A DNA stretch of 35,446 bases, from NCBI GenBank assembly GCA_030753015.1, contig JASMDC010000037.1, positions 1-35,446 of the forward strand, written 5' to 3'. The position numbers and the translations under genes are program-made. The stretch's first letter is position 1. Each line of letters starts with the position of its first letter. Below, in pieces: positions 1-22,197 of this stretch. The notes below the pieces were generated by a model. It saw only the letters and a list, made by a program, of their open reading frames with translations. It ran no database searches and was not told the origin of the DNA. The stretch comes from Candidatus Undinarchaeales archaeon. GTDB taxonomy: Archaea > SpSt-1190 > JASMDC01.

Positions 1-1608
1 ATAGGTTTATAAAATTAATGCGCCTAAATAGGCTCATGAAGAAGTACACCCGTATCAAGATCATCAACGGCCGCGAGTACGCGTACGAGATCACCCCGTA
101 CTACGACCCGAAGACCAAGAATACGCGGCAGAAGAGCAAGTATCTTGGCGCGGTCCAAAGCGATGGCTCGATACGCAAGGTGCGACAGAAGCTCCCGCGC
201 AACTCGTTTTCCTACGGTCAGTTCATCCCCGCCCTCCACGTCATCAGTGAGCTCAAGGTCGACGAGATCCTGACCCGGACCTTCGGCGAGGCGCGAACGA
301 AGCTCCTTCTCGCCCTCGCCATGAACCGGGCGCTTCGCCCTGTCGCGTTCCACAACGTCAGGAACTGGTACGAGGGCACGATCCTCGTCAAGGAGTACGG
401 CGACCTCCCGCTCTCGTCCCAGAACATCAGCAAGGTCCTCTCCGCCACCGGGCAGAGCTCGGCGCCCTACGAGTTCTGCAAGTCGTTCACGCGGAGCCGC
501 CCGAGCGCCGACACCCTCGTGTACGACATCACATCTCTCTCCTCCTACTCGGACCTGATCAGTCTCCTCGAGTACGGGTACAACCGTGACGGGCTCAGTC
601 TGCCACAGGTGAACCTCTCCATGGTCCTCGACAAGGAGCGCGGCATCCCCGTACTGTTCGACGTGTACCCGGGGAGCGTCCCGGACGTGTCCACCTTCAA
701 GAACACGCTGACGAAGCTCGGTGACTGCGGCGCCAAGTCCTTTCGCCTCGTCCTCGACCGCGGGTTCTTCAGCTCCGACAACGTCATGGACATGCTCGAT
801 GCGGAGCTCGACTTCGTGATCCCGGCCAAGGCGTCGCTCAAGGAGGTCAAGAACCTCATCTCGAAGAACCACACCAAGAAGGAGGACCCGTCCTTCCTCA
901 GGTTGTATCAGGACAGGACGCTCTTCGTCAAGGACGTGACGGTGAGGATCAAGAGCGACGAGAAGGAGAAGGACGTTCCGGCGTACCTCTACTACGACCT
1001 GAGACGGGCACAGGAGCAGAAGGACGCGTTCTACAAGGCTCTCCGCCGATGCGTAGAGCAGATCGAGGAGGCCAGACCGAGATCATGGCAGAAGCCGGCG
1101 AAGGTCGTGGGGGGGATCGCGAAAAAGCTCGTCACGTTCATCAGGTGGAAGAAGGTGGACGGGAACAGGATCAGCGTCACGCTGAAGAAGAAGGCGATCT
1201 CGCAGCGGGTGAACAAGATGGGGTTCACCGTCCTTCTCTACAACGGCGACCATACGTGGGACGGCGCGCTCACACTGTACCGGGAGAAGGACATCATCGA
1301 GAAAATCTTCCAGGTCCTCAAGCGCGACCTGGAGGCAATGCCCATGAACGTGCAGTCCACAGAGACCATGAAGGGATTCGTGTTCGTGACATTCCTCGCG
1401 CTAATCATCCGATTCAGGCTCATCAGGATGCTCAAGGATGCGGGCCTGGGAAGGAAGTGGTCCGTTGACAAGTTCCTCTTGGAGATGGAGAAACTAAGCA
1501 AAGTCGAGATGGAAAACGGGGAAATGTTCACAACCGAGATCACGAAGAAGCAGAGGGAGCTGATGGAGGCGCTCGGATTAACCTGTGCCTAAAACGGGGG
1601 AGCTCAGG
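1..1608 (+). mobile_element. IS1634-family insertion sequence (left end off-window; right end about 1608)
   Basis: Contains a full DDE transposase. The transposase stop (1592) is followed by AACGGGGGAGCTCAGG ending at 1608, where the interrupted host gene sequence resumes. The left inverted repeat is not in the window, so TIR and TSD cannot be verified. Confidence 0.8.
36..1592 (+). CDS. IS1634-family DDE transposase
   Basis: Motifs YDITSLSSY, YGYNRDGLSLPQVNL, VLDRGFFS and YREKDIIEKIF (D-D-E intact); N-terminus YYDPKTKNTRQKSKYLG is typical of archaeal IS1634. ATG36 preferred over ATG18 because TTTATAAA at 6-13 fits a leaderless start. Confidence 0.9.
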   Translation: MKKYTRIKIINGREYAYEITPYYDPKTKNTRQKSKYLGAVQSDGSIRKVRQKLPRNSFSYGQFIPALHVISELKVDEILTRTFGEARTKLLLALAMNRALRPVAFHNVRNWYEGTILVKEYGDLPLSSQNISKVLSATGQSSAPYEFCKSFTRSRPSADTLVYDITSLSSYSDLISLLEYGYNRDGLSLPQVNLSMVLDKERGIPVLFDVYPGSVPDVSTFKNTLTKLGDCGAKSFRLVLDRGFFSSDNVMDMLDAELDFVIPAKASLKEVKNLISKNHTKKEDPSFLRLYQDRTLFVKDVTVRIKSDEKEKDVPAYLYYDLRRAQEQKDAFYKALRRCVEQIEEARPRSWQKPAKVVGGIAKKLVTFIRWKKVDGNRISVTLKKKAISQRVNKMGFTVLLYNGDHTWDGALTLYREKDIIEKIFQVLKRDLEAMPMNVQSTETMKGFVFVTFLALIIRFRLIRMLKDAGLGRKWSVDKFLLEMEKLSKVEMENGEMFTTEITKKQRELMEALGLTCA

Positions 1609-1948: not shown

Positions 1949-4900
1949 TTAAGTCGTCTCCGTGATCTCGGAGTAGAAGTCCGAAAGCCTCTCGGGGAGG
2001 GCGTCCACGTTATCGAGCACACAGTAGTTACCGTGCCCGAACATGGTCTCCAGGTACTCGCCACCCCGGCTGTCGATGGCCATGGCATACGACTGGATGC
2101 CCATGTTGTGGCCCTCGTCGATGGCCTTGCGGATGTCGTTGAACACGTAGTCCTTGCCCTGCTTGTTGGGCGAGTCGCTGTAGTCGTTAGGCTCACCGTC
2201 GGTGAGGTAGAGGAATATCTTGGTGCGGGCGTCGGTCTGGTCGAGCTGGGCCATGGCGTGTCGCATGGCGGGGCCCATCTTGGTCATCGAACCGGGCTCC
2301 ATGCCCTCGATGCGGCCATGGGTTATCCCGTTGTAATCCTCCTCGAAGGATTTTACGCGGTAGACGCGCACGTCGTCCTTGCCCGACGTGTCGAATCCGT
2401 AGATGGCGAACTGGTCACCGAGATTATCGAGCGCCTCGCTCATGAGGATCATGGACTCTTTGGACTTCTTGATGATGTTGCCGTAGGTGGAGCCGCTCTG
2501 GTCGACAAGGATGCACACGGCCACATCGCGACCCTGCTTCCTCGACTCCTCGAAGATCTTGTCGTCCATGCCGTGGCCTGTTGCCCGGCGCTCGCCCCAC
2601 GCATCGGTGTAGGCGTCCATGTCCACGTCGGACCCCTCGGGGAGTCGGCGCTCCTTCTCGAGGTGGGCCGGTTTGAGCTCGGACATGGTGTCGATGATCT
2701 GGCGCCTGATCGTGTCCATGTCCCTGATTGTGGCTGAGTAGAACTCGGTGGAGGCCTTCTCGCGGATGATCTCTTTTACGGTGCAGAACTCGTAGAGGTA
2801 GTCGCTGAGGGTGGAGTCCCACTCGTCGTACTTGAACTCCTCGATGACCTCGTTGCGGTCCGTCGGATCGCCGCCACCGCCCTGGTCGGGATCGGGGGGC
2901 GCATCGCTGCCACCCTGGGGCTTGCCGCTGCCGCCCTGCTGCGGGTCGCCGTCACCGTCCTGCTGGTCGTCTCCCTGGTCGTCGCCGTCGCCACCGCCGC
3001 CGTCCTGGTCGTCGCCCTCGTCATCACCGGACTCTCCGCCGTCACCCTGGCCGTCCTGGGGCTCGCCGTCGCCGGACTCCCCTCCGCCCTGGCCCTCCTG
3101 TGGCTCGCCGTCGCCGCCGTGGTCGCCCACGTCGTCTCCCGGCTGCTGGTCCTGTGGCTCGGTGAGCTGGGGGAAGAGATCGGTGACAATGTCATAGACC
3201 TTGCGCGTGGCGCTCCATGTGTCGTACACAGTGCCCGGTTCGGATTCGGTCTTGTATATGTCGTAGCACTGGTCGAATGGTGCCTGGTACTGGGGATCTA
3301 TCTGGGTGACGGTCGTGCCCATCTTGACCTTCTGGAGGAGCGCGGACATGAACTGCTGCCCCGGGTCCTGGGCCTCGGGCCCCTCGAGAGGCTTCATGAT
3401 ATAAGCCGCGTTTGTGAGGTCCAGTTCCTCGGAGATGAGGCCGCCGTACTCGTCGCGGAGGTTGTGCTCGATGCGACCGTCCTCGAGCAGGTTCCAGATG
3501 TGCTTGGCAAGGCCCTGCTTCTCGTACTCTTTTACAGCTTCCTTGATCTCCACGGCGAAGGAGTCGTACTTGATGTGGGACATCTCATGGTCCATGAGGC
3601 CCCAGTAGAGCATGCGGTTCTGGTCGTTATCGGTGTACGCGTCCACGCGCTTGGGGATGAAGATGGTGTTGTTGTCAGTGTAGGCTATGGCGCTTCCCTT
3701 GACGATGTCCACGCCCACGGGTTTCTCGAGGATGCCGCCCACCCACTTGCCGGCGGAACCCTGGATGTCCTCGAAAGCCACGTAGTGGTACTTTTCCTTG
3801 AGATCGTCCATGAAGCCGCGGGTGAGCCCGAGCTTGAAGAACTTCTCCGCGGCGTCGACGCCGTGCTCCTTGTAGACGTCCAGGCCCTTCTCGGCCCAGT
3901 CCTGGAGGACACGACCGTCGAACTCCTTGAGGATGACGCCGAAGTTCTCCATGAACGCCTTGGCGAGCTTGGTATCGACCACCTCCACCTTCTGCTCGGC
4001 CTGGTAGACGGCTGCGAGCTGCTGTGGGTCCTTGACGGCCTCCATGGAGGTGATGGTGTTGTTGAGGTAGTTGTTCATCTGGGAGCTGTAATCGACGGAG
4101 AGCTTCTCTCCCAGGCCCAGTACGAAGTCCTTGATCATGTCGGGGAACTTGGAGAGGCGACCCAGCTCCTTCAGGTCGCTGATGGCGGCAGTGTCGTTCC
4201 GCTCGTAGATGGTGGCGTGGTAGTCGAAGAACTGCTGGCGGTCTTCGGGCTTGACTGTGCGGAAGAACGTCTCGGTGTTCTTGAGCAGGTCCTCCTTCCG
4301 GCCTTTGTAAGTGGTGCTGTCGAGCTCACCCTTCCAGGTGAGGTAGTCGGGCGCCGACATCTCGGCAAGGAAGGGTATCGAGCGCACAAAGGCACCGTAG
4401 GTAGCGGCATCGATGGCGTTCGAGGATGAGTAGTAGTAGCCACTGCTGGTGAAGTCGTCTTCGTTGATGGTGGTGCCCTCGCGGATGAACTGCTTGAGGC
4501 TGCGGTCGTTCATACCCTCCAGAGCGCGACCGTTCTCAAGGATGGCCCGGGCGAGGCTGGCGCGCTTCTTCTCGGTGGCCATGGTGGCCATCTCGAACAG
4601 GCGCCCCTTGTCGGTCACCTTCTCCAGGAGCTTGGCGTCCATGTGGTAGGGTGCGTACTCGTCCTTATCTGTGACCTCGTTGAGCTTGTAGGCGAGGGTA
4701 TTGAGGGTGTCGAGCTCTTCCTTTCCGAGGAAGGGAGTGAACGCGGCTGCCTTTTTGACCACCGTCTCCACGAGCTTCTCGTTGATCCCCTCGACGGCGT
4801 GGAGGTACTTGTCCTGTCCCTCCTGTTCGAGGGCGGCAAGCTCGTCACGGGAATGGTAGAGGACGGCCTTGCGGGCATCGTCGGTGGTGAGCCTGAGGGC

Positions 4901-6631
4901 GATCTCCTTCCATACCCCGAAGGCGTCGGGGCGGAGGATGTCGGTGATCCCGCCGGTGTGTGCGAAGTAGCGCTCGCCCACGTAGCCGTCGCCAGCAAGG
5001 CGCTTGTCCATAAGCTCCTTGCCGAAGGCCGCCCAGGTCTCGAGGTTCTCGTCGCCCTGACCGGGATCGTACTGCTCCTGCAGCTGGTTGAAGAACTCGG
5101 CGGCCGCCAGGCCGTTCGTCCCGGCGAGCTCGCGGGTGAGCTCGAAAGCCCGCTTGGTGGGCTTCCCCTCGAGGGTCGGGATGACCTTCTTGGAGTTCTC
5201 GAAGAACTTGTAGGCGGCGGGGTCGCCGGCGAAGACGTTGGCCGTCTTCACCCAGTCGAACATGAAGCGGTTACCGAGATCGTCGATGAGCTCCTTGGTG
5301 CGGTCGAAGTATGATTTCTTGAGCTGGTCGTCCAGACCGCGGCTGACATCGATCCACTTCCGTACATCCTTGAGAGAGCGGTCCTTGAAGTGGTCGTGGC
5401 TCTGGAGGACCTCCTTGGCAGCATCGCCCTCGCCCTCTTCCACAGCGTACTCCACCATACGGAAGAGCTTGCCGCGCTTGTGCCCGTCATAGGAGCGGAC
5501 GAACGTCTGTGTCCTGTCGAGCACGCGGTCGGCGACGTCAATGTCCTTCTGGGAGATGCGGTTGGCCACATCGCCGATCTGAGTGATCGTCTTGGCGTTG
5601 ACATCGCTCAGGGACGTCTTGGTCTTGTCCACGAACTTAACCGGATCGTAGTATGATGCACCGACATCGGCCCAAGCACTGAGCGTGGAGGCCTTGGCCT
5701 CCTCGATATACTGGCCCGCCTTGAAGGTGGCGGCGCCCATGGCTTCGTTCTGCTGGGCGACGTCCTTGACGATGCCCAGGACCTTGTCTCGGTCCTTGAC
5801 CTGTCTGAGAACGGCATAGGAGTCGTCGAAGTACCGCTTGCGCAGCTCCGGGTCGGAGAACGAGTCGGCGGTATCCTCCCAGGCAGCGACCGTGCCGGCC
5901 TCCTCCACCACGCCCCGGACGTCGCCGGAGGCGTTCATGAAGGAGTAGGCCAGGGGCTTGCTGTCCTGGTAGTATGATTCCATGCCCTCGATGACGTGCT
6001 CGCGCACGTCCTCGTCCAGGCGCTTGAAGGTGTTGGCGGCCTTGGTGAAGAACTGGCTGCGAGCAAGCTTGAACGAGCCATCCTCGTACTCCTTGCCCAT
6101 GGTGTAGATCCTGTCGTTCTGCTCATCGCTGAGATTGCTGAACAGGTCGTCGGCGTTAGTGAAGTAGGACTTCCCGTCAGCGGGTTTGTCTGCTGCGAGC
6201 TCGGCGGCCCGGCCTAGCACTGTGACGTACGCGTTCGGGTCCACCTTGTCCACAAAGGAGTCGATGGAGCGGGCCATTGTCGAGACATCGGAATTGTCAA
6301 CAGTAGAGATGAATGACGCGAGCTCACGGTGGGCGGGTGCGAGCTGTTCGCCCCGCTCAGCGAGCTTCTCCCACATCTCGGTGAAGTTCGAGACGTGGTA
6401 GCCGTACTCGGGCTTCTCCATGAATCCCAGGAGCTTGTCCCGGGCCTCGCTGTCGCTGAAGTGGGTGAAGACTTCTTTGGTCTTGTCGATGAACTTGCTC
6501 GCGTTCCACCTGTTGAGTCGCTCGAGCTTGTCCGCGACAGCGTTCCATTTGGTGAGCTGGTCGTCGGAGAGCCCCAACCCGGAGAGGTCGGGGCGTTCGA
6601 GAGGTTCTGTGGTGGTGGCGGAGGTATCCAT
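1949..6631 (-). CDS. Giant CbbO/NorD/CobT-like vWA protein: N-terminal helical repeats, HExxH metallopeptidase-like domain, acidic linker, C-terminal vWA (1560 aa)
   Basis: C-terminal ILVDQSGS (MIDAS DxSxS), TKMGPAMRHA and LTDGEPND; central DHEMSHIKY...WNLLEDGRIE; FKYDEWD motif seen in CbbO/NorD; lies directly downstream of a CbbQ/NorQ ATPase. Confidence 0.85.
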   Translation of the reverse strand: MDTSATTTEPLERPDLSGLGLSDDQLTKWNAVADKLERLNRWNASKFIDKTKEVFTHFSDSEARDKLLGFMEKPEYGYHVSNFTEMWEKLAERGEQLAPAHRELASFISTVDNSDVSTMARSIDSFVDKVDPNAYVTVLGRAAELAADKPADGKSYFTNADDLFSNLSDEQNDRIYTMGKEYEDGSFKLARSQFFTKAANTFKRLDEDVREHVIEGMESYYQDSKPLAYSFMNASGDVRGVVEEAGTVAAWEDTADSFSDPELRKRYFDDSYAVLRQVKDRDKVLGIVKDVAQQNEAMGAATFKAGQYIEEAKASTLSAWADVGASYYDPVKFVDKTKTSLSDVNAKTITQIGDVANRISQKDIDVADRVLDRTQTFVRSYDGHKRGKLFRMVEYAVEEGEGDAAKEVLQSHDHFKDRSLKDVRKWIDVSRGLDDQLKKSYFDRTKELIDDLGNRFMFDWVKTANVFAGDPAAYKFFENSKKVIPTLEGKPTKRAFELTRELAGTNGLAAAEFFNQLQEQYDPGQGDENLETWAAFGKELMDKRLAGDGYVGERYFAHTGGITDILRPDAFGVWKEIALRLTTDDARKAVLYHSRDELAALEQEGQDKYLHAVEGINEKLVETVVKKAAAFTPFLGKEELDTLNTLAYKLNEVTDKDEYAPYHMDAKLLEKVTDKGRLFEMATMATEKKRASLARAILENGRALEGMNDRSLKQFIREGTTINEDDFTSSGYYYSSSNAIDAATYGAFVRSIPFLAEMSAPDYLTWKGELDSTTYKGRKEDLLKNTETFFRTVKPEDRQQFFDYHATIYERNDTAAISDLKELGRLSKFPDMIKDFVLGLGEKLSVDYSSQMNNYLNNTITSMEAVKDPQQLAAVYQAEQKVEVVDTKLAKAFMENFGVILKEFDGRVLQDWAEKGLDVYKEHGVDAAEKFFKLGLTRGFMDDLKEKYHYVAFEDIQGSAGKWVGGILEKPVGVDIVKGSAIAYTDNNTIFIPKRVDAYTDNDQNRMLYWGLMDHEMSHIKYDSFAVEIKEAVKEYEKQGLAKHIWNLLEDGRIEHNLRDEYGGLISEELDLTNAAYIMKPLEGPEAQDPGQQFMSALLQKVKMGTTVTQIDPQYQAPFDQCYDIYKTESEPGTVYDTWSATRKVYDIVTDLFPQLTEPQDQQPGDDVGDHGGDGEPQEGQGGGESGDGEPQDGQGDGGESGDDEGDDQDGGGGDGDDQGDDQQDGDGDPQQGGSGKPQGGSDAPPDPDQGGGGDPTDRNEVIEEFKYDEWDSTLSDYLYEFCTVKEIIREKASTEFYSATIRDMDTIRRQIIDTMSELKPAHLEKERRLPEGSDVDMDAYTDAWGERRATGHGMDDKIFEESRKQGRDVAVCILVDQSGSTYGNIIKKSKESMILMSEALDNLGDQFAIYGFDTSGKDDVRVYRVKSFEEDYNGITHGRIEGMEPGSMTKMGPAMRHAMAQLDQTDARTKIFLYLTDGEPNDYSDSPNKQGKDYVFNDIRKAIDEGHNMGIQSYAMAIDSRGGEYLETMFGHGNYCVLDNVDALPERLSDFYSEITETT
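2860..3160 (-). repeat. Gly/Asp/Gln-rich low-complexity linker with duplicated GDGEPQ(E/D)GQG..GESGD units
   Basis: Seen directly in the translation between the HExxH domain and the vWA domain. Confidence 0.8.
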
Positions 6632-6667
6632 CGTCAGGTCCGTGTTAGTATCTTGTACAGGACGTGT

Positions 6668-7771
6668 CTACTGCTGGGCCTCGGCTTCCGCCTCTGGCTC
6701 CTGGGCGACCTCACCGCGGTTGTACTGGCCGTCGATGACGTCGACCTGCCGCATGATGGCCTCGCGCACGTCGGAGTAGTCGGGCAGCGGTTCCGTGATG
6801 ACGCTAACGATACCCATCTGGCACGCGTCGTGGAATGCATAGCCTTGGCCCATGAGCTCGGCAGTGGCGATAAGGGTGCGTGTACCGGCTCCCTCCTTGA
6901 GCTCCTTCATCTTGCGTGTGAACACGCCGATCTCGACGAGCATCTGTGAGTCCTTCATGGCGACGTTGCCCTCGTGGGCGACGATCTGGGTCTCGAGCTC
7001 GGCCTGAGGTGACTTCATATCGCGAGCGTAGTCGATGTCGACTGCCATGAAGCGCTGCTGGAGCGAGGGTTTCAGCTGAGCGCGCTGGTAACCGGGATTG
7101 TAGGCTGAGACGAAGTAGAAGTCTTCGGCAGCGTGAACGATCTCGCCACCTTTCTTTTCCAGTGTGATCTTGCGCTGGTGGTCGGTGGCCTCGTTGACCT
7201 TCGAGAGCACGTCCTTGCGCGCCTCGGCGATCTCGTCCAGGTAGAACACACCGCCGTACCGAGCGGCCAGGGTCAGCGGCCCGTCCTGCCACTTGATCTC
7301 ATCGCCCTTGACGATGTAGCGGCCGATGAGGTCGTTGGACGACAGGTCCTCGTTCCCTATGGCGTAGAACATGGGCTGGTCCGTCTTGAAGCAGAAGTGC
7401 TCTATAAGACGTGTCTTGCCGCACCCGGTCGGTCCCTTGAGCATCATAGGTTTCTTGACCGCATAGGCGTCCATGAGCACGTCGAGCTCGTTCACATCTA
7501 CCTGGTTGCCGTCCACTACCTTGTGGTACTCCTTGACGGGTAGGTAGTATGGCTCCTTGGTGATCTTGTAATCGTCGATGTTGATCTCGTCCGGCGCCCC
7601 TAGATTGAGGTCGACCTCTTCTCCGGTGTCCAGGTACTTCGCGTGCACCTCGTTGGACCCGTTGTCGATACCCTCGATCTTCAGATCTCTTGCCCTGCCA
7701 GTGTTCTCGTCATAGATCTTGAGCGTTTCACCGACTGGAATAGTGATATCCTCGCTGATTTCTCCGTACAT
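6668..7771 (-). CDS. CbbQ/NirQ/NorQ-family (MoxR clade) AAA+ ATPase with an N-terminal extension
   Basis: EPYY, Walker A LKGPTGCGKTR, WQDGPLTLAARYG, Walker B YLDEIAEARKD, YNPGYQ and LKPSLQQRF, all hallmark CbbQ/NorQ motifs. Confidence 0.92.
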   Translation of the reverse strand: MYGEISEDITIPVGETLKIYDENTGRARDLKIEGIDNGSNEVHAKYLDTGEEVDLNLGAPDEINIDDYKITKEPYYLPVKEYHKVVDGNQVDVNELDVLMDAYAVKKPMMLKGPTGCGKTRLIEHFCFKTDQPMFYAIGNEDLSSNDLIGRYIVKGDEIKWQDGPLTLAARYGGVFYLDEIAEARKDVLSKVNEATDHQRKITLEKKGGEIVHAAEDFYFVSAYNPGYQRAQLKPSLQQRFMAVDIDYARDMKSPQAELETQIVAHEGNVAMKDSQMLVEIGVFTRKMKELKEGAGTRTLIATAELMGQGYAFHDACQMGIVSVITEPLPDYSDVREAIMRQVDVIDGQYNRGEVAQEPEAEAEAQQ

Positions 7772-7833
7772 CGTCAGTACCCCACCTTCTCCAAGTTAAT
7801 AGAGAGGGTAGCCGTCTCCTGCCCGACTTCCGA

Positions 7834-7849
7834 CTTATATACTTTCTCT
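7834..7849 (-). promoter_or_regulatory. BRE-TATA promoter for the AAA+/vWA operon
   Basis: Minus strand AGAGAAAGTATATAAG about 60 nt upstream of ATG7771; GGTGGGG SD-like sequence before the start. Confidence 0.6.
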
Positions 7850-7864
7850 TTAGTTGTCCCTTGA

Positions 7865-7885
7865 AAGGTACGAATTTCGTACCTT
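7865..7885. promoter_or_regulatory. Perfect 21-bp palindrome (candidate operator) in the divergent promoter region
   Basis: AAGGTACGAA-T-TTCGTACCTT, 10-bp arms with a 1-nt centre. Confidence 0.65.
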
Positions 7886-7950
7886 ATTATAGACCCAGGC
7901 GACCTAGCGACATCCCTTTAAAGCTAGCCGGTCCTCCGGTCCAGAGCACC

Positions 7951-9246
7951 ATGCCCACCGTCCTCGTGCTCTGCTTCGATAGCCATGTGCGTCTCATCAG
8001 GGAGTTCTTCGAGCGCGATACCACCTACGACGCCGTCATCGATCCGCAGTCCGCTATCGAGCGCGATGGCGTGGGGGCCTACGTCGAGCGGATCGCAGAG
8101 AAGATACGATCGGGCCGGCTTTCGGTCGACGGTATCGCCACAACCACCGAGGACCTCGCGTTAGTTGCGTCCGTCATCGCACGTGAGGCCGGTCTTGCCG
8201 GACCCGCTCCGGGCGCTGTGTTCGCCTGTCAGAACAAGCTTGTGCAGCGCACGCTCCAGCGGGAATGCGCTCCCGAGGCCACGCCGGACTTCTTCCTGGC
8301 CCGGGACTGGCTTGTGGGAGAGGTCCCCGGTGTGCAGTTCCCTCTCTTTGTCAAGCCGGTGACCTCGGCCCTGTCCTTCTACTCCCACCATGTTGAGGAT
8401 GCGGGCGAGCTCCGACGGATCATACGCGAAGGACGCGATATAGTTCCTTCAGGCAACCGGCTCAACAGCGAGGTCATCGAGCTCGGTTACATCGACCACC
8501 CGTGGGCGCCCCTTCATAGTGAGCTGTTATGTGAGGGGGTGATCACGGGCACACAGGTCACCGTGGACGGCTATGTGCGAGAGGGGGGCGTTGTGCTCCT
8601 GGGGACGACCCTCTCGGTGTTCGTCCCGGGGACGATCAGCTTCTCACGCTTCGACTTCCCACATCAGTTCGATCCGGAGATCGACTCCCGGGTCGCTGGG
8701 CTCGTCCAGCGCGTGGTCACTCATATCGGTCTGGATGATACTCTGTTCAACATGGAGCTCATGGTGGACGGGGGAACGGGCGCGATAAGCATAGTCGAGC
8801 TCAACACCCGCCTCTCGTTCCAGTTCGTACCCCTCATCGAATGGGTGCGTGGCGTCAGCCCTCTCCGCATCATGTGCGACATAGCTGTAGGGCGAGAACC
8901 CAAAAGGTTAGCTACTGAAGGGGCCGGACCTTATTCAATGTCGAGCTCATGCGTCCTTCGCACGCCTGAGGACCGGTGGGTGGTCGACGTGCCCTCATCA
9001 GAGGACGTCGCGCGCATCGAGGCGGAGCGTCCCAATGTGCGTGTATTCCCCTTGGTGGCGCCAGGGACGCGCCTTTCGGACTACCTGCAGGACGCATATA
9101 CCTATCGGTACTGCCTGGTGAATATCGCTGGCGAGGACATCGACGAGGTCATCAGCACCCTTGCGGTCGTGAAGAATGGGCTAGGATTCCGGCTCGCACC
9201 GGCTGAGGACTCCCCTGCTTCGCCGGTCAAAAAAGAAAAAAGGTAG
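7951..9246 (+). CDS. ATP-grasp domain protein (putative carboxylate-amine/peptide ligase)
   Basis: CQNKLVQR, FPLFVKP, LCEGVITGTQVTVDG and FNMEL...IVELNTRL are ATP-grasp motifs. ATG7951 lies about 28 nt after TTTAAA (7917-7922). Confidence 0.85.
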   Translation: MPTVLVLCFDSHVRLIREFFERDTTYDAVIDPQSAIERDGVGAYVERIAEKIRSGRLSVDGIATTTEDLALVASVIAREAGLAGPAPGAVFACQNKLVQRTLQRECAPEATPDFFLARDWLVGEVPGVQFPLFVKPVTSALSFYSHHVEDAGELRRIIREGRDIVPSGNRLNSEVIELGYIDHPWAPLHSELLCEGVITGTQVTVDGYVREGGVVLLGTTLSVFVPGTISFSRFDFPHQFDPEIDSRVAGLVQRVVTHIGLDDTLFNMELMVDGGTGAISIVELNTRLSFQFVPLIEWVRGVSPLRIMCDIAVGREPKRLATEGAGPYSMSSSCVLRTPEDRWVVDVPSSEDVARIEAERPNVRVFPLVAPGTRLSDYLQDAYTYRYCLVNIAGEDIDEVISTLAVVKNGLGFRLAPAEDSPASPVKKEKR

Positions 9247-9437: not shown

Positions 9438-12400
9438 TCACACACGTCCGTCAACGAAGAGGTGGCGACCGCGCTCGGAGAGCTCCACGACCTTGCTCCT
9501 ACCCTTTTCGTGCTGGAGCAGGTGGCCGGCGCTCACGAGATTCCTTACCCGCTTGCGTACGGTGGGTTGGCTGATTCCCAGCTCAGCGCCGATTTCGGTG
9601 TTGGAGGGCTTGAGCCCGAGCAGGTTCCGCTGATATACGTACCGAAGGACCTCCAGAAGGTCCTCGGGAAGGCTTACCTTGATCATCGGATTGATCTCCA
9701 GACATTCCTTCTCGAGCAGCCTCAGCTCCCGCGGGTCCATGGTCGTAGGATCAACGGAGACAATGATGATGTGACCTTTGAGGTAGGCTACCTCACGCAG
9801 CCGTTCCACTAGAGACAGTGTCTCGCTGAACCCGATCTTCAGAACGAGGAAGTCCAGTCTGTCGATGAGAACCGTGTGTGCCCGTTGAAGCTCCTCGATG
9901 CAGTTCTCGACCTGTGCTGCTCGGGGTGCTATGCTACCAGCTCCTGCGCGGTCCGTGAGCCAATGGAACGTGTACTCCGCATCCAGATCCTTCTTGAACT
10001 CCTTCTCGGGGGCCCGGGAGATCACAAGGCCGGGGAATCCTGCCTTCAGGAGATCGGAGAACGCCTCGAGTGCAAGCCCTGCCGCTTGCTCTTGAGCGAG
10101 GTAGAGCTGTCCGTCCTCGAGGCTGTAGCGCATCAGGCGGCGTCGCATCTCCTCCTCGGAACGCTTGCGCTCGGTGATGTCCTTGAACACTGCAAGCCAT
10201 CCGGACGTAGCTGCGTCGGCACCCTTGATTGGCGCAGGTGTGATCAAGCAGTGGATGAGGTCCCCGTCCTTTCTCCGCAGGGCACCTTCGAACTCACCCT
10301 CCCCGCCCCGTTCTTCGAACACGTACCGTTTGAAGAGTGCCATGGCCCTGTCCCTCGTCCCCTCGTTCCAGAACGGGAATGGCGGCTTGATACCAACGAG
10401 CTCCTTCTCACTGAATCCCGTCATTGAGCAGAAGGCCGGGTTCACGTACGTTGTCATTCCATCGAGGTCGACGAGGAGGAGACCGTCCTTCATGGACTCG
10501 TGAAGGCTTCTGGAGAACGCCTCCTGCCTGACGAGCTGCTCCTCGGCCCTCTTGTGCTCGGTGATGTCCCGCCAGATGCCTTGGATGAAGGTCTTTCCCC
10601 CGGCCTGGATGGGCCTGGTGCTCACCATGATAACACGCGTCCTGCCGTCCTTTGTCCGGTGCTTGGTCTCGAAGAGGTCGCCACCCTCTTTCGTGATCTT
10701 CTTGATGTGCTCTGTGGTCTCCTCGGGGGACTCGATGACCTCGATGTCCGCGAGCGTGAGCTGAGCGAACTCCTCACGGGAATATCCTAGGTTCTTATGG
10801 GCCCGCTCGTTGAACTCGGTGAACGTCTTCGAACCAGTATCGATCAGAACGATGGAGTCTGCTGCCTGATCGAAGATGGCGCGGTATCGTTCCTCTGACT
10901 CACGCAGGGCCTTCTCCGACCTGGTACGCTCCGTGATGTCGCGAACGTAGGCGTGGACGAGCCGCTGTCCACCGACAGATGCTACCCTGAAGCTCACCTC
11001 TGTCGGGAACTCGGTACCGTCCTTACGTCTACCGGATGAACCGATGAACAGGCCCTCCTTCTTGAGCTGCTTCCTGATTGTCCGGGGGAGCGTGCCCGCG
11101 ACGTCATCCGGTACGAGGTCTATGGCGTTCATTCCACGAAGCTCGACCTTGGAGTAACCGAACATCTCGCAGGCAGTAACGTTACAGTCGATGATGTTCC
11201 CGTTGAGGGTCTCGAGGAGAACGGCGTCGGTGGACGTCTCCACGAGCGTCCTGTACTTCTCCTCGCTTGCCTTGATGGCCTGCTCGGCCTTCTTGCGTGC
11301 AGTGATGTTGCGGATCATGATGAGCACGGTGTCCTTGCCGGACGTGGCCATCCTCGCCTCGAATTCCCGCTCATCGCCACCAACCGTGAGCTTATACTCG
11401 TACACCTGCAGTTCACCGGTCTCCAGGCATTGCTTCATGTGACGCGTCGTCAAACGGGCAAGGTCACGCGGGAGGATGTCGTTCACCTTCTTTCCCAGGA
11501 ACTCCTCGGGAGTCGCATAAAGATCATCACTTCCGCCCTTGTAACTGATGAAAGTACCATCCTTGTGGACCTGGAACATGAGGTCGGGCATCGCGTCGAG
11601 GATGGCACGGGTCTTCGACTCGCTCTCCGCCAAGGCCGCCTCGGTCCTCTTTCGCTCACTGATGTCACGAGCGATGCCCATGCACACGCTCCTGCCATCG
11701 ATCGTTAAGGGGAATCCCTTCACCTCGACCTCGGCCATGCTTCCGTCCTTCCGGGCCAGGGTGACGGGGAGCGCATCGGTCGCTTCCCCGGTCCTTGCGA
11801 GATCAGCCAATACCTTTATCGCGTCCTTGATGGTCTTCTTAGTGATCAGGTTGAGCGTCAGGAAGCTCTTCCCGATCAGCTCCTCCTTCTTGTAGCCTAC
11901 CAACCGTTCGGCGGCCTCGTTGCCGTCGATGAACACCCCTTTCAGGTCGTGGAGGTAGATCGCGTCCGGCGACCTCTCGAAGAGGGCCCTGAACCGCTCT
12001 TCGGAGACACGTAGCTCCTCTTCGGCCTTCTTACGCTCGGTCACCTCACGCTCCAGTTCAACGGTCTTTGCCTGCAGTTCGGCAACACGCTCGTCCACCA
12101 AGTTTTGGAGGTGGTCCCGGTGATGCTCGAGCTCCTCTTCGGTATGCTTGCGCTCGGTGATGTCCCGGAGGATGCCCACTGCACCGATGATGCTCCCGCC
12201 CTTCCGGACGAGATGGTTGCTCGCTTCCACGGGGACGGTGGTGCCGTCTTTACGGATGAGCTCGAGAGTGATCAGTGGGCTCTCCTTGCCCTTCGTGACA
12301 GCGTCGGTGATCAACTTGGCGATCCGGGGTATCTCCCTGGAACTGAGAACACCGAGCTTGAGGACGTTCCGACCGATGACCTCTTCCTGCGAGTAACCGA

Positions 12401-12563
12401 CGAGGTTCTCCACACGCGGATTCACATCGATGACGGTGCCTGTGCGGTCGATGAACACCACCAGGTCGTTGATGCTCCCGCATATCTCTTCGTGGAGCTC
12501 AAGCAGGACGGTACCCGGCTCGTGCTCTACCGGGATCTCGTCCTTTCTCTTTGTCGAAGGCAT
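9438..12563 (-). CDS. One-component sensor/regulator: six PAS domains, DUF835 and a C-terminal winged HTH
   Basis: Six PAS/PAC units ending RDITERK, RDISERK, RNITARK, RDITERT, RDITEHK and KDITERK; DUF835-like GLVISRAPE...WLT...VLIDRLDFL...IIVSVDP...ELRLLEKE; wHTH TEIGAELGISQPTVRKRVRNL...VELSERG. No histidine kinase motifs. Confidence 0.88.
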   Translation of the reverse strand: MPSTKRKDEIPVEHEPGTVLLELHEEICGSINDLVVFIDRTGTVIDVNPRVENLVGYSQEEVIGRNVLKLGVLSSREIPRIAKLITDAVTKGKESPLITLELIRKDGTTVPVEASNHLVRKGGSIIGAVGILRDITERKHTEEELEHHRDHLQNLVDERVAELQAKTVELEREVTERKKAEEELRVSEERFRALFERSPDAIYLHDLKGVFIDGNEAAERLVGYKKEELIGKSFLTLNLITKKTIKDAIKVLADLARTGEATDALPVTLARKDGSMAEVEVKGFPLTIDGRSVCMGIARDISERKRTEAALAESESKTRAILDAMPDLMFQVHKDGTFISYKGGSDDLYATPEEFLGKKVNDILPRDLARLTTRHMKQCLETGELQVYEYKLTVGGDEREFEARMATSGKDTVLIMIRNITARKKAEQAIKASEEKYRTLVETSTDAVLLETLNGNIIDCNVTACEMFGYSKVELRGMNAIDLVPDDVAGTLPRTIRKQLKKEGLFIGSSGRRKDGTEFPTEVSFRVASVGGQRLVHAYVRDITERTRSEKALRESEERYRAIFDQAADSIVLIDTGSKTFTEFNERAHKNLGYSREEFAQLTLADIEVIESPEETTEHIKKITKEGGDLFETKHRTKDGRTRVIMVSTRPIQAGGKTFIQGIWRDITEHKRAEEQLVRQEAFSRSLHESMKDGLLLVDLDGMTTYVNPAFCSMTGFSEKELVGIKPPFPFWNEGTRDRAMALFKRYVFEERGGEGEFEGALRRKDGDLIHCLITPAPIKGADAATSGWLAVFKDITERKRSEEEMRRRLMRYSLEDGQLYLAQEQAAGLALEAFSDLLKAGFPGLVISRAPEKEFKKDLDAEYTFHWLTDRAGAGSIAPRAAQVENCIEELQRAHTVLIDRLDFLVLKIGFSETLSLVERLREVAYLKGHIIIVSVDPTTMDPRELRLLEKECLEINPMIKVSLPEDLLEVLRYVYQRNLLGLKPSNTEIGAELGISQPTVRKRVRNLVSAGHLLQHEKGRSKVVELSERGRHLFVDGRV

Positions 12564-12626: not shown

Positions 12627-12763
12627 ACATAGTCCTTTCCTTATAGGTCTACTATCATCGTGCACAACCTGTCGAGAGCGGCCGCAATCCACGCAGGTAC
12701 GCACAGGCCGGGCCCAATAATCCACTGACTAGAAAGGCTACAATGAACGGACGACGACCGGTC

Positions 12764-13309
12764 CTAGATCTCACCGATCTCCTTGAACTTCTCCAAGAGC
12801 TTGTCGAAGGCTTCACGGACGTCCTCGATGCGCTTGGCGCCGGTGACCACGAAGCGGCCGGTACTGAATATGAGGATGGCCACCTTGGGCTTGATCATCC
12901 GGAACACCATGCCGGGGAACTGCTCGGGCTCGTACTCCACACCTTCGAGCTTGTAGGCCAGTCGGTCCAGGTTGAGCTCGAGATCGGTCTTGACCGAGGA
13001 GACGATGTTCTGGATCTCGATGAGGGGCTCGCCATTGAACTCCACTCCGTAATCGGCGAGGAGAACCTTGACCAGGCCAACGGCCCGCTTCACGTCCTCG
13101 ATGGACCGCGAACCAGTGCAGACCATCTTACCGGACCCAAAGAGGAGGTTGGCCGTCTTGGGCTCGGGCAGCCTGAGCACGAGACCGGGGAACTGCTCGG
13201 GGTTGAACTCTGCGTTCTCACTCCCGGCGGCTACCCGCTCGAGGGGAATTGAACAGTAAAGGTTGCAGGAGGCAACGATGTTCTCGACTTTAATCTCAAC
13301 GAGTGTCAT
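12764..13309 (-). CDS. tbp: TATA-box binding protein
   Basis: Two TBP repeats: IKVENIVAS...FNPEQFPGLVLR...LLFGSGKMVCTG and IQNIVSS...YEPEQFPGMVFR...LIFSTGRFVVTGAK. ATG13309 follows an AGGTGG SD. Confidence 0.97.
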   Translation of the reverse strand: MTLVEIKVENIVASCNLYCSIPLERVAAGSENAEFNPEQFPGLVLRLPEPKTANLLFGSGKMVCTGSRSIEDVKRAVGLVKVLLADYGVEFNGEPLIEIQNIVSSVKTDLELNLDRLAYKLEGVEYEPEQFPGMVFRMIKPKVAILIFSTGRFVVTGAKRIEDVREAFDKLLEKFKEIGEI

Positions 13310-14630: not shown

Positions 14631-15404
14631 TTACTTGCCACCGATCTCCTTGCGGATCATGGAGAGCTCCATGTGCATCTGCTTTTCGAGATCACCGAAC
14701 TTCTTGTTGATCGCCTCAAGATCCCGCCCCTTATCATCGAGCTTCTCCTGGAGTTCGACGATTGTGGCGTTCTTCCGGTCGACCGCATCCTCGAGGTTCT
14801 TGATACGCTGGGAGAGCTCGTGGATGAACTTGATGTCCTCCGCCATCTCCTTGAGTATCATAGCTACACCGTCCTCTTTCTTAGCGCCAGGAGCAGCGGG
14901 CCCCTTGGTCTTGACCTGGTCCTCGATGATCCCGATCTTCTGTTTTAGCTCGTCGATCGTCTCACGGGCGGGGGACTTTGGGCGTTCCGGGGCCTTCTCG
15001 GGCTCCTTGACCTTAGGTGCCTCGGCCGGAGGTGCCATGACTGGTGGCGCAGGTCCGGGAGGAGGTGCGATCGTGGGTGCCTCTACCTTCGGGGCCTCGA
15101 CCACAGGCACCTTCACCTCGGGTACCGGTGGCGGCATGGGTCCTCCCATGGGCTTCGGCGGCATGGGTCCTCCCATGGGCTTTGGCGGCATGGGTCCTCC
15201 CATGGGCTTTGGCGGCATGGGTCCTCCCATGGGCTTTGGCGGCATGGGTCCTCCCATGGGTTTCGGCGGCATGGGTCCTCCCATGGGCTTTGGTGGCATA
15301 GGTCCACCGACGGGTTGTGGTGGCATGGGTCCCGCACCGGGTGGGGCAGGTTGAGGTGGTTGAGCATCCGTGTTCTTCTTACCGAGCAGCCAGTCGAGCA
15401 CCAT
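14631..15404 (-). CDS. Hypothetical protein: short amphipathic N-terminus, Pro/Gly/Met tandem repeats, C-terminal coiled coil (257 aa)
   Basis: Start at ATG15404 (MVLDWLLGKK) after TATA-like CATAAAAAG; the longer ORF call overlaps the divergent gene. C-terminal heptads IHELSQRIKNLEDAVDRKNATIVELQEKL. Confidence 0.75.
   Translation of the reverse strand: MVLDWLLGKKNTDAQPPQPAPPGAGPMPPQPVGGPMPPKPMGGPMPPKPMGGPMPPKPMGGPMPPKPMGGPMPPKPMGGPMPPKPMGGPMPPPVPEVKVPVVEAPKVEAPTIAPPPGPAPPVMAPPAEAPKVKEPEKAPERPKSPARETIDELKQKIGIIEDQVKTKGPAAPGAKKEDGVAMILKEMAEDIKFIHELSQRIKNLEDAVDRKNATIVELQEKLDDKGRDLEAINKKFGDLEKQMHMELSMIRKEIGGK
15130..15333 (-). repeat. 27-bp coding tandem repeat (GPMPPKPMG) x6 plus 2 degenerate copies
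   Basis: Plus-strand unit GGCGGCATGGGTCCTCCCATGGGCTTY, with only synonymous variation among the six exact peptide copies. Confidence 0.95.
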
Positions 15405-15492
15405 GGGGCCATGAATCCACCAAACCTTTTTATGTGCTATCATTAGCGGGATAGTGTAGTTGTCTGACAGTAGTACCTGTCGGAGGGATACC

Positions 15493-16431
15493 ATGGCTTC
15501 GGAGGACATGGACTCGATCATCGGCCCTTCTCTTTCCTTTTTCAAAGAGAACCTCCACCTTCTATCACTCTCGGTCGCGATAGGTGTCGTTATCACGGTG
15601 GTCGTGGCGTTCCTCCCCGTACCACACGACTGGTTCACTCTCATCAGTCTGAACGTGCTCGGGCCCGACTGGCGGAACGCGCGGGACATCGAGTTCATGT
15701 TCTTCACGACGCTCTACGGGTCCCTGCACAGGATCGCAACGCTCGCCATCTATCTCATCTACGCCGCTTCCGTGTACGGCTACCTGGGGAGGCGGGACCG
15801 GAGCGTCGGCTCCGCGATCATGCTCCTCCACGACCGCGCGCCGCGGTTGTTCACCCGACTGCTGCTCTACCTCCTGCTCTATGCCGCAGGTGTTTCGCTC
15901 CTCCACTTCGCTGTAGAGGAAGGTGGGAAAGTACGGGCCCTGAGCTCGTTGCTCGATACAATAGGTCCTCTCGTGCCCGTGCTCGTTGGCCTGCCCTTCT
16001 TCTTCATCGTCCATGACGCTCTCTTCATGGACGAGGATTATGATGCACTTGAGATCGCCTGGGCGACCGCTTCCCGCGCTATGTCCAGCGCGCCCGCTGT
16101 CATTGCCATCACGGCCGTGCTAGAGATGGGTAGGGTCGCTTGGCAACCGGCTTCGATGTTCTTCAAGCTCCTCGTAAAGGACTGGGAGCACACCGGTTTC
16201 TACTGGCACAACTCATACACTGCTGTCATCGCTGTCACGGGAGAACTTGCAGACTATGTCCTCTTCCTCCCGTTCACGGCCGTGGTTGCCACCTACCTCT
16301 ACATGCAGTGCAAGGACAATCCCTTGGTCCCTGCCATCGTCGCAGAGCGGGAGGCGCTCTACGCCCACATGGCCTCGCTCAAAAGCTACTACGGCTCCTA
16401 CCAGTACCAGCCGGTCCAGGAGGGCTGGTGA
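15493..16431 (+). CDS. Multi-pass membrane protein of unknown function
   Basis: About six hydrophobic segments; GGAGGGA SD before ATG15493; Tyr-rich C-terminal tail. Confidence 0.75.
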   Translation: MASEDMDSIIGPSLSFFKENLHLLSLSVAIGVVITVVVAFLPVPHDWFTLISLNVLGPDWRNARDIEFMFFTTLYGSLHRIATLAIYLIYAASVYGYLGRRDRSVGSAIMLLHDRAPRLFTRLLLYLLLYAAGVSLLHFAVEEGGKVRALSSLLDTIGPLVPVLVGLPFFFIVHDALFMDEDYDALEIAWATASRAMSSAPAVIAITAVLEMGRVAWQPASMFFKLLVKDWEHTGFYWHNSYTAVIAVTGELADYVLFLPFTAVVATYLYMQCKDNPLVPAIVAEREALYAHMASLKSYYGSYQYQPVQEGW

Positions 16432-21060: not shown

Positions 21061-22197
21061 TCATACCTCCTCTACGGGGGTTCCCCGCTGTACCAGGCGT
21101 CCGAACCACCGGGCCAGCGCGTTCCGCCAGCCAGGATCGTCAGGCCTTGATGGTCCCTCGTACTCCTTGATATCGAACCGTTCGGCCCAGTCGCGCTTCA
21201 GGTCCACGAGCTGGAAAAGCGACACGGCGAACTGCTTGTCGCTCCCCGTACGCTCCCGCGCTCCACGAGCCACGGCCTCGATGACCTCGCGCTGGTCACA
21301 CAGCTTCTCCCTGCCCTCGGGGGTGTGGTAGTAAAGGTCGAACAGCTCCACCATGGAGCGGTGGCCGTACCCGGCCTCGGTGATGCCGAGGCTGACACCG
21401 ATATCCTTGTCGGGATAGGCCTCGTACAGCTTGTTGACGTGGTCGGTGAGCACCTTGTGGGCGAACGTGTCGGTCATGAAGGGCTTCAACGTCATGGAAG
21501 CGTAGCTCATCAGCTCGATACCGTCGAAGTGGGAGAGGTCCGGGAGCGGTGCTCCGAACCGTTCGAGGAAGCCGCGCTCGCGCTCGGGGAGGATGGCCAC
21601 CGAACCGATGCCCCGCTCCTTGAGGTAATCGGCGAGCCCTGTGAGCTTCTCACCAGCCTCCTTCACGGCCCGATCATGCTCCTCGCGACGTCCGGGGGAG
21701 AACAGCATGGCCACCTGGTCGATGATGTGGCCGGACCAGCTCTCCTGGGGTTCGATGTCCACCATGAGCCGCGAGTCCATCTCCCTGAAGGTGTCCCCGT
21801 ACCGAGCCTCCAGATCCTTGACGTAGTCGACGTACACGTCGATGTTCTCCTTGTTGACCCAGATTCCGTGCTCCTTGTTGAGCACCGGCCAGACGTCGAT
21901 ACCGAGACCGGCCTCCCTGGAAACGTCCATCAGCTCGTCGAAGAGACCTTCCTTGTAGAGGTCGAGCGGAAGGCATGCGCGTACCCGTATCCCGTTGTCC
22001 CGAAGATATCCGAGCGTTTCCACCAGATAGGCGTCGTCGCCCCCCGTCCCGCCATCGGCCAGCGCCCGTGTAGCGTCTATGAGGCTCCTGTAGCCGTCAG
22101 CGGCGTCTATGAGGCTCTGGTATCCATTGACGTCGTAGACTTCGAACCACACCCCGTCGAAACGTGAAGCTAGCTCTACGTCTTCGTACGCTTCCAT
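21061..22197 (-). CDS. Hypothetical protein, possibly a glycoside-hydrolase-like TIM barrel
   Basis: Alternating beta/alpha pattern with IDVWPVL..HGIWVN, LMVDIEP, IELMSYAS and IGVSLG; own TATA (minus strand TTTATATA, 22231-22238). The ORF is solid; the fold is an inference. Confidence 0.6.
   Translation of the reverse strand: MEAYEDVELASRFDGVWFEVYDVNGYQSLIDAADGYRSLIDATRALADGGTGGDDAYLVETLGYLRDNGIRVRACLPLDLYKEGLFDELMDVSREAGLGIDVWPVLNKEHGIWVNKENIDVYVDYVKDLEARYGDTFREMDSRLMVDIEPQESWSGHIIDQVAMLFSPGRREEHDRAVKEAGEKLTGLADYLKERGIGSVAILPERERGFLERFGAPLPDLSHFDGIELMSYASMTLKPFMTDTFAHKVLTDHVNKLYEAYPDKDIGVSLGITEAGYGHRSMVELFDLYYHTPEGREKLCDQREVIEAVARGARERTGSDKQFAVSLFQLVDLKRDWAERFDIKEYEGPSRPDDPGWRNALARWFGRLVQRGTPVEEV

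Follow-up and report, generated by a model that had tools for sequence, protein, structure and literature searches.

What kind of machine is encoded by a two-gene unit that pairs a CbbQ/NorQ-type ATPase with an adaptor protein of 1560 residues? The unit lies on a contig of 35,446 nucleotides (nt) from a Candidatus Undinarchaeales archaeon (JASMDC010000037.1, here C48). The entire contig was analysed and is referred to below as the window; it belongs to a 3.85-Mb archaeal assembly (GCA_030753015.1, here G000) that is 98.9% complete. [quoted passage not shown] This description stands: the two open reading frames (ORFs) are as described, Cbf5 and the ribosomal proteins L19e and S4e, all encoded in the window, include the archaeal type, and every part of the adaptor was found again at the positions listed in Table 1. 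We hypothesise, with a probability of about 0.6, that the pair is a MoxR motor with its adaptor, of the same kind as CbbQ-CbbO, NorQ-NorD and CobS-CobT, in which the motor twists the adaptor and a client-binding arm is fused to the docking domain. The ATPase and the adaptor are here named P0002 and P0001.

The assignment of the ATPase is strongly supported by its sequence. P0002 matches AAA_5 (PF07728, E 1.9e-30) and CbbQ_C (PF08406, E 3e-16), both of which exceed the cut-off. Among solved structures the best match is CbbQ 5c3c (E 6.9e-61), followed by CbbQ 6l1q (E 4.9e-55) and NorQ 9qhd_A (E 6.5e-49), and the nearest relatives outside its own family are CbbQ/NorQ proteins of about 267 residues with 41–45% identity (6209 matches). 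The CobS model TIGR01650 is matched at only E 0.0051. In an alignment of 27 ATPase sequences (A5) the key residues of the Walker A and Walker B motifs are invariant. According to the accessible text of PMC13036017, the NorQ motif GRxLL/IxxxxT in the helix-2 insert grips the finger of the adaptor. The corresponding sequence in P0002 is GRYIVKGDEI, against GRFLLEGDET in NorQ-like proteins, with the G, the R and the spacing kept and the final T replaced by I. The N-terminal extension of P0002 is found only within the family; the other 24 rows of A5 have a gap or an unrelated short leader in this region, save for P0194, whose leader is long and cannot be aligned. Taken together, these comparisons place P0002 in the CbbQ/NorQ clade of MoxR ATPases, with the motifs for ATP binding and hydrolysis intact. 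It is the sole CbbQ/NorQ-like ATPase in the genome (own-genome search, one match).

In the adaptor, Pfam recognises only the vWA domain (E 1.9e-7). Using phmmer, residues 1253–1555 align with residues 341–642 of NorD from P. denitrificans (E 3.5e-35), and the NorD-like protein P0008 (787 residues; NorD E 4.3e-47) aligns in two blocks, 868–1153 (E 1e-22) and 1268–1557 (E 1e-53). When the profile of the P0001 family (A1) was compared by hhalign with a profile of 19 CobT-like sequences (A4), residues 956–1551 aligned end to end (probability 100, E 7.7e-41), and the CobT-like profile in turn aligns over its whole length with the solved cobaltochelatase CobT 9uka_G (E 3.1e-42). P0001 has no match at E ≤ 0.01 to the canonical CobT models TIGR01651 and PF06213; the link to CobT runs through profiles.

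AlphaFold2 was run on residues 861–1560 and generated a model (predicted local distance difference test, pLDDT, 80.7) in which the N-domain and the vWA domain are separated by a disordered linker. The linker has pLDDT values of 26–41 and is below 50 at model residues 303–393, corresponding to residues 1163–1253. The NorD vWA domain ranks first in searches with this 700-residue model using Foldseek and VIA, and vWA domains fill both lists. Against BFVD, Foldseek finds phage CobT/VWFA proteins over 670–900 columns (E 4.4e-19 to 1e-15; targets of 428–863 residues), including proteins from haloarchaeal tailed viruses. The MIDAS is complete. Residues D1377, S1379, S1381 and D1478 are invariant in an alignment of 30 sequences (A2), which were hand-picked from the matches for shared architecture and are not a random sample, and T1450 is invariant in A1. 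The finger of NorD comprises residues 403–448 (PMC13036017, from the portion of the text available), and the equivalent segment is kept in all five members of the P0001 family. These alignments strongly support the view that the C-terminal 600–700 residues of P0001 form a complete adaptor of the NorD/CbbO/CobT type.

The N-domain of this module carries the HExxH motif. The number of HExxH motifs expected by chance in a protein with the composition of P0001 is 0.033. HExxH and LEDGRIE are both kept in 5/5 family members, with an invariant Glu 31 residues downstream. In A2, H1015 and E1050 are conserved in 30/30 sequences, E1016 and H1019 in 28/30, R1053 in 27/30, and D1051 and E1055 in 26/30. 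An exhaustive phmmer search with residues 1–1150 against 1.84 billion cluster representatives gave 74 matches, 49 of which have HExxH somewhere in the sequence, and 41 of these also have E-[DEN]-x-[RH]-[IVL] downstream. At the aligned site, solved canonical CobT has SMALR in place of HExxH and VEQARVE downstream, and the NorD-like P0008 has HKYGQ followed by IENARVE.

The order of secondary structure in the N-domain model is a helix, short strands and then eight helices, with HEMSH on the first of the eight (model helix 142–161) and E1050 on the third (model helix 179–202). This order matches the topology given for CobT_N, a three-stranded sheet with one helix before it and eight after (bioRxiv 10.64898/2026.07.21.739949, accessible text). 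The same text states that CobT_N resembles an M48C peptidase; zinc and HExxH are unmentioned in the searched text of this preprint and of bioRxiv 10.64898/2026.10.09.757910. The A2 sequences match 35 Pfam families at E ≤ 1, and the 25 that are listed include no zinc peptidase. The scan gave one match to Peptidase_C80 (E 0.12), which is not a zincin, and one to DUF3810 (0.009), which we take to be a putative zincin. Alignment by hhalign of the CobT-like profile with one M48 protein of the same genome covers 13 columns around HExxH, with a probability of 2.4.

The earlier note had listed the HExxH site as one of four parts of the adaptor and had suggested a possible ATP-coupled metalloprotease, and here it needs to be revised. 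Because the family profile aligns to the CobT-like profile, which itself matches solved CobT, the HExxH domain is, on profile evidence, the standard N-domain of CobT/NorD-type adaptors and not an added protease module. The His-His-Glu signature is kept in most CobT-like relatives and lost in canonical CobT and P0008, and its distribution therefore marks it as ancestral, kept in many lineages and lost in CobT. Its conservation argues for a working metal site, without showing catalysis. Since the N-domain of P0001 keeps the signature that canonical CobT has lost, it probably still binds metal.

The contact between the two proteins was modelled as a complex of two chains, full-length P0002 and residues 861–1160 of P0001, in three runs with three controls. 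The predicted complex has an ipSAE score of 0.73 in 3/3 runs, and the best control scored 0.00. At least 76% of the contacts are common to the runs, with a partner pLDDT of at least 87. During calibration, 116 of 157 solved complexes and 2 of 215 mismatched pairs attained the mark, rates that are approximate for the present runs, which used our own alignments. The predicted interface lies between residues 284–290 and 333–352 of the ATPase and residues 958–971, 1010 and 1062–1066 of the adaptor. On the ATPase, this surface falls mostly within CbbQ_C and extends 8 residues beyond its end. On the adaptor, it falls by helix count on helices α1, α2 (the HExxH helix) and α5, where α1 is the last helix of the lead-in that precedes the N-domain. 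In CobT it is also α1, α2 and α5 that contact the small-domain helices of CobS, according to the available part of bioRxiv 10.64898/2026.10.09.757910, and the available part of PMC13036017 describes the small helical subdomain of NorQ as the binding site of NorD's N-domain, the linker as essential and the finger as sitting in the pore. The N-domain of P0001 is thus predicted to anchor the adaptor to the small AAA+ subdomain, as in CobT and NorD.

Solved NorD proteins are 638–646 residues long and solved CobT is 637, and CbbO has about 770 residues; at 1560 residues P0001 is more than double the size of the solved adaptors. The region N-terminal to the adaptor module was described in the earlier note as helical repeats, and this is borne out. 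The AlphaFold2 model of residues 1–900 is all-α, with about 24 helix hairpins and a pLDDT of 81.6 for the best of five models. Comparison by hhalign of the profile of residues 1–960 with itself gave off-diagonal alignments down to E 1.6e-13, and the region therefore contains true internal repeats. Outside the family, a counterpart of residues 1–867 is seen in one weak match of the 74, P0015 (residues 416–586, E 1.4e-7). A further match with seven stretches, P0049, is a collagen-like low-complexity protein and an artefact. By Foldseek the best matches to the solenoid are BurrH and TAL effectors (E 1.7e-4), but the template modelling scores are 0.14–0.17 and the root-mean-square deviation is above 30 Å, and no usable match was found in the ESM Atlas. 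By these fold searches, the modelled solenoid resembles generic repeat proteins only. No membrane segment was seen in P0001.

Between the solenoid and the N-domain is a helical lead-in. Its limits are based on the BLASTP alignment to P0008, which starts at residue 868, and on phmmer matches, which begin at residues 790–890. Mid-size adaptors (790–1135 residues) share residues 868–968 and also bear helical N-terminal extensions. Of the matches, 29 have their first HExxH starting before residue 100, 7 at 100–299, 10 at 300–699 and 3 at 700 or beyond. This places the P0001 family at the extreme of a graded series.

The family is extremely rare: its other near-full-length clusters among the phmmer matches number three, P0005 (44% identity), P0006 (35%) and P0007 (33%), the last of which is without the first 415 or so residues. 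The remaining matches lie mainly within residues 790–1150 or thereabouts, save P0015 and P0049. Pfam analysis of 30 of the 74 matches found PF06213 (CobT) in 10 and VWA or CobT_C in most, and in the A2 sequences PF06213 was found in 19/30 and VWA in 28/30. A word-index search of 5.8 billion proteins found three sequences, namely P0001 itself, one with 89% and one with 43% identity. Within the host phylum the pair occurs in 2 of 17 genomes, both of the same genus, and a scan of genome contigs found only this sister genome and one distant locus in a Woesearchaeota metagenome-assembled genome (MAG). No relatives were found in viral contigs, nor in scans of JGI metagenomes with either the family alignment or the protein encoded by the neighbouring ATP-grasp gene. 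The sister genome has the same gene order, consisting of a PAS-DUF835-HTH regulator, a divergent ATP-grasp gene, the ATPase and the adaptor, with identities of 94% for the ATPase, 89–90% for the adaptor and 79–81% for the ATP-grasp protein. The Woesearchaeota locus encodes a distant version of the adaptor, a 646-residue protein with 23% identity that has HEILH at residue 81, NITEDGRIE and a DISGS MIDAS. The locus adjoins two APH-type kinase genes. Its middle gene, of 446 residues, has no family and is unrelated; as a candidate for a detached solenoid it was rejected (hhalign probability 0.2).

If the pair is a twisting motor and adaptor as proposed, the finger would, as in NorQD and CobST, insert into the hexamer's pore, and the vWA domain would sit on the concave face of the ring. 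Rotation driven by ATP would stretch the linker and pull whatever the adaptor holds. The solenoid of about 867 residues, being joined directly to the docking domain, would be the client-binding arm, and the MIDAS face would offer a second grip on the client. The N-domain may cut the client, clamp a peptide or hand over a metal.

Several observations weigh against this proposal. How the solenoid is shaped overall is uncertain, because the five AlphaFold2 models, made from an alignment of five rows, span pLDDT values from 81.6 to 40.8; in this model the secondary structure alone is firm. For the zincin fold of the N-domain the basis is homology to CobT_N, a single preprint sentence and a matching order of secondary structure. 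The score of the complex may partly reflect likeness to the CobST and NorQD complexes solved in 2026. The gene neighbourhoods come from one genome of the same genus and one distant Woesearchaeota locus, and they give no link to a pathway. Finally, no client was found: G000, at its 98.9% completeness, has no PF00115 (heme-copper oxidase/NorB) and no CobN (PF02514), and its one Rubisco large-subunit gene, on contig C106 (within 52000–70000), has no MoxR-vWA neighbour.

The main rival to a twisting motor is an ATP-coupled metalloprotease, in which the solenoid and the MIDAS would capture a client, the ATPase would pull or unfold it, and the HExxH...E site of the adaptor would cut it, so that the protease would be part of the adaptor and not of the motor. 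We consider this possible, though on the unlikely side. It would explain why HExxH and the downstream Glu are kept throughout the family and are so highly conserved in A2, why HExxH recurs in two thirds of the relatives (49/74), and why the motif is lost exactly where the role is non-proteolytic, in canonical CobT; the stated resemblance of CobT_N to an M48C peptidase (bioRxiv 10.64898/2026.07.21.739949, accessible text) points the same way. There are also precedents, all of them predictions: a degradation system of MoxR, vWA and peptidase (PMC3495828, in the part of the article available) and a MoxR and metallopeptidase-vWA pair of a jumbo phage, suggested to be a processing chaperone (PMC7824862, likewise in part). 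However, peptidase activity is reported for no member of the N-domain family in the papers examined, as far as their accessible text goes. W1010 of the HExxH helix is in the predicted docking surface, so that the conservation could instead serve docking or a structural metal, and there is no zinc peptidase among the listed Pfam families and only 13 aligned columns in the M48 comparison described above. A more specific form of this idea, which would be a new architecture of ATP-dependent protease, is that the ring twists its adaptor and feeds no substrate into a proteolytic chamber, a specific client being held by the 24-repeat solenoid and cut by the docked zincin site once it has been stretched. 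This form we regard as improbable. If it were true, one processing cut would be gated by the hydrolysis of ATP. Catalysis could also be turned on or off with the nucleotide state of the ATPase subunit, since the model has the HExxH helix in contact with the ATPase.

It is considerably harder to defend a metal-insertion chaperone, in which the His-His-Glu site would hold a metal for a metalloenzyme opened by the motor. The idea arises naturally from the closest characterised systems, which insert FeB into cNOR and Co into hydrogenobyrinic acid diamide, from the 41–45% identity of the ATPase to NorQ/CbbQ proteins and from the conserved ligand set. Yet the N-domains of NorD and CobT have no such site, metal carriage by an N-domain is without precedent, and there is no candidate metalloenzyme nearby among the window ORFs scanned. 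We therefore hold it to be very unlikely.

A CbbQO-like activase for the archaeal-type Rubisco of the same genome would fit the best solved match of the ATPase, which is CbbQ, and the presence in the genome of one Rubisco large-subunit gene and no second CbbQ/NorQ-like ATPase. Nevertheless, the Rubisco gene is on C106, away from the pair, and the adaptor bears an arm of 867 residues and an HExxH site of the kind that is missing from the NorD-like relative P0008; we would be surprised if it were correct. Near the Rubisco gene on C106 are genes for a GH57 glycosidase, a TnpB/Cas12f-like protein, an HPS-PHI (OMPdecase+SIS) fusion and a PAN-type proteasomal ATPase. Scarcely credible, too, is a defence system or a peptide-modification or conflict module, in which the ATP-grasp ligase writes, the zincin erases and the motor presents: the divergent gene is 89 nt away and is placed likewise in the sister genome, but conservation within one genus carries little weight, an ATP-grasp gene is absent from the Woesearchaeota locus, homologues of the ATP-grasp protein occur at 31–38% identity in bacterial records, and PADLOC gave 0 matches for the ATPase, the adaptor and the ATP-grasp protein.

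It is useful to compare the pair, read as a motor and adaptor, with the known systems. It resembles NorQ-NorD (FeB into cNOR; 9qh4–9qhg; PMC13036017, accessible text) in the clade of the ATPase, in an adaptor that has a finger, a MIDAS vWA and a C-terminus of much the same length, and in the layout of N-domain, long flexible linker and vWA, with the N-domain predicted on the small AAA subdomain. It differs in that G000 has no NOR or heme-copper oxidase, in the size of the adaptor, in keeping HExxH...E, and in adding the solenoid to P0001 and the N-terminal extension of about 60 residues to P0002. With CobS-CobT (9uka; aerobic cobaltochelatase) it shares the end-to-end homology of residues 956–1551 to CobT-like proteins, the CobT_N topology, the predicted docking through α1, α2 and α5, and an acidic linker of about 90 residues; the differences are SMALR in CobT against HEMSH in P0001, the failure of P0001 to match TIGR01651 and PF06213, an ATPase that is CbbQ/NorQ-like and not CobS-like, and the lack of CobN in G000. 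With CbbQ-CbbO it shares the best match of the ATPase and the organisation as a two-gene motor-adaptor unit, and it differs in lying away from Rubisco; on the CbbO side the comparison is one of size and architecture.

Jumbo phages encode MoxR together with a vWA protein whose N-terminal part is a metallopeptidase domain (Iyer et al. 2021, PMC7824862, accessible text). Such phage and mobile pairs, often labelled CobS/CobT-like, are similar in having an adjacent MoxR and a vWA protein with an HExxH N-domain. However, P0001 and P0002 are chromosomal, P0002 belongs to the CbbQ/NorQ clade, the vWA of P0001 is closest to NorD, and none of the listed phage proteins has a comparable solenoid of about 900 residues. 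A plasmid search for canonical CobT found plasmid CobT-like vWA proteins only. The MoxR-vWA-TGL operons (Zhang & Aravind 2012, PMC3495828, accessible text) embody the same idea of motor, vWA recruiter and peptidase, but there the peptidase is a separate transglutaminase-like membrane protein, whereas in P0001 the zincin-like domain is within the adaptor.

All the parts of the pair are of known classes, and the pairing of MoxR with a metallopeptidase-vWA protein is already published. New are the way in which they are combined, an arm of this size, a NorD-like adaptor whose site is intact, the absence of a known client, and the CbbQ/NorQ-NorD pedigree. The suggestion in the earlier note of an undescribed system is therefore right in part: the solenoid fusion and the pedigree are new, and the general kind of system is in print (PMC7824862, accessible text). 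In line with the note, no Rubisco, NorB, CO dehydrogenase or cobalt chelatase was found among the 27 window ORFs scanned (ORFs of less than 150 residues beyond 12 kb excluded). The outcomes that it had named as refuting its reading did not occur: no characterised full-length homologue was found, the pair is not linked to Rubisco or NOR, and HExxH proved to be conserved in the family. No published CbbQ/NorQ-type pair with such an adaptor was found in the literature searched, most subscription journals being outside its coverage.

Of the ATP-driven machines of prokaryotes that have no assigned function, MoxR/vWA pairs rank with the most widespread, and few of them have a known client. The present pair joins a NorQD-like motor and vWA, readable by way of the 2026 structures, to an N-domain with a zinc-protease signature and to a large arm, and a repeat arm specific to the family should bind its client tightly enough for fishing. 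If the site is active, the docking N-domain of CobT and NorD would descend from an enzyme and would still be an enzyme in many lineages, and the pair would be a tractable model for the CobS/CobT-like pairs of phages and plasmids. If it is inactive, the locus would be a rare elaboration of a known type of chaperone.

Table 1 Features of the locus, with nucleotide positions in the window unless another sequence is named (aa, amino acid residues)
Feature	Position	Strand	Remarks
ATPase P0002	6668..7771	(-)	367-aa ORF, CbbQ/NorQ-class MoxR AAA+
ATPase N-terminal extension, ~60 aa	7592..7771	(-)	family-only: P0002, P0079, P0080
Walker A GPTGCGKT, aa 113-120	7412..7435	(-)	G113, P114, G116, G118, K119 invariant in A5
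Walker B YLDE, aa 177-180	7232..7243	(-)	Y177, L178, D179, E180 invariant in A5
CbbQ_C small α-helical subdomain, aa 260-344	6740..6994	(-)	Pfam
Gap from ATPase stop to adaptor start	6632..6667	(-)	36 nt, both genes codirectional
Adaptor P0001	1949..6631	(-)	1560-aa ORF and translation
Family-specific α-solenoid, aa 1-867	4031..6631	(-)	~22 two-helix repeats of ~36 aa
Helical lead-in, aa 868-968	3728..4030	(-)	common to mid-size NorD-like adaptors
CobT_N-type zincin-like N-domain, aa 969-1152	3176..3727	(-)	three short strands then eight helices (DSSP of model)
HEMSH, aa 1015-1019	3575..3589	(-)	translation, family alignment
NLLEDGRIE, aa 1047-1055	3467..3493	(-)	E1050 is the candidate third metal ligand
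Acidic Gly-rich linker, aa 1161-1255	2867..3151	(-)	D+E 32.6%, Gly 35.8%, K+R 1.1%
NorD-finger equivalent, aa ~1323-1368	2528..2665	(-)	phmmer alignment to P. denitrificans NorD ~403-448
vWA domain, aa 1372-1535	2027..2518	(-)	MIDAS DQSGS at 2489-2503
Divergent intergenic region	7772..7860		TATATAA ~65 nt upstream of ATPase start
ATP-grasp gene	7861..9246	(+)	ATP-grasp_4 E 2.9e-6; divergent from the pair, 89 nt away
DDE_Tnp_1 transposase gene	18-1592	(+)	contig start, convergent with adaptor gene
Sensor-regulator	9438-12563	(-)	1041 aa, five PAS, DUF835, C-terminal helix-turn-helix (HTH)
Woesearchaeota MAG unit	L004:7497-11917		three overlapping or abutting genes: AAA_5 ATPase, 446 aa, 646 aa

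Seawater or marine metagenome runs of 10 studies contain the stretch. In three RNA libraries from two studies there are contigs that align gap-free with parts of both genes, no part differing by more than one base. One of these contigs, covering 7384–7818, crosses the start of the ATPase gene and reaches 47 nt upstream, which fits the TATATAA about 65 nt upstream. These contigs are compatible with DNA carry-over, and strand and co-transcription cannot be judged from them; none covers 7819–9114, which is not evidence of silence. A scan for bacterial-type promoters and terminators gave near-background counts, with a model that is not applicable to an archaeon. It was observed that CTGACG directly precedes ATG in both genes of the pair (6631–6640 and 7771–7780, minus strand).

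The pair is chromosomal, about 18 kb from a SecY/ribosomal-protein cluster. The neighbours scanned encode the sensor-regulator, the ATP-grasp protein, a GH130 protein, an XPD-like helicase, hydrolases, rRNA and tRNA modification enzymes and ribosomal proteins, and apart from the one DDE transposase they show no viral or mobile context. The ATP-grasp gene probably starts downstream of 7861. Its product has 19 homologues by word index, the next closest with 38% identity, and matches no solved structure at E ≤ 0.01. Across the phylum it is distributed as the pair is, which is uninformative, the genus being an outlier in every respect. Genomes of this genus are 3.6–3.85 Mb in size, 99% complete with about 5% contamination, and the other 15 genomes of the class or phylum are 0.6–1.2 Mb; either a DPANN phylum here includes a lineage of big genomes, or the bin is faulty or wrongly placed.

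Between the transposase and adaptor genes (1593–1948) there is an AT-rich stretch at about 1727–1790. In the sister genome, the region 3' of the adaptor has two unknown ORFs and an inositol monophosphatase gene in place of the transposase, and the position of the regulator is occupied by a shorter PAS-GAF-DUF835-HTH protein. Pfam gave no match for several long ORFs of the window, at 14631–15707 (-), 15460–16431 (+), 12743–13252 (+) and 21061–22197 (-). The first two of these overlap on opposite strands, and one of them is probably not a gene.

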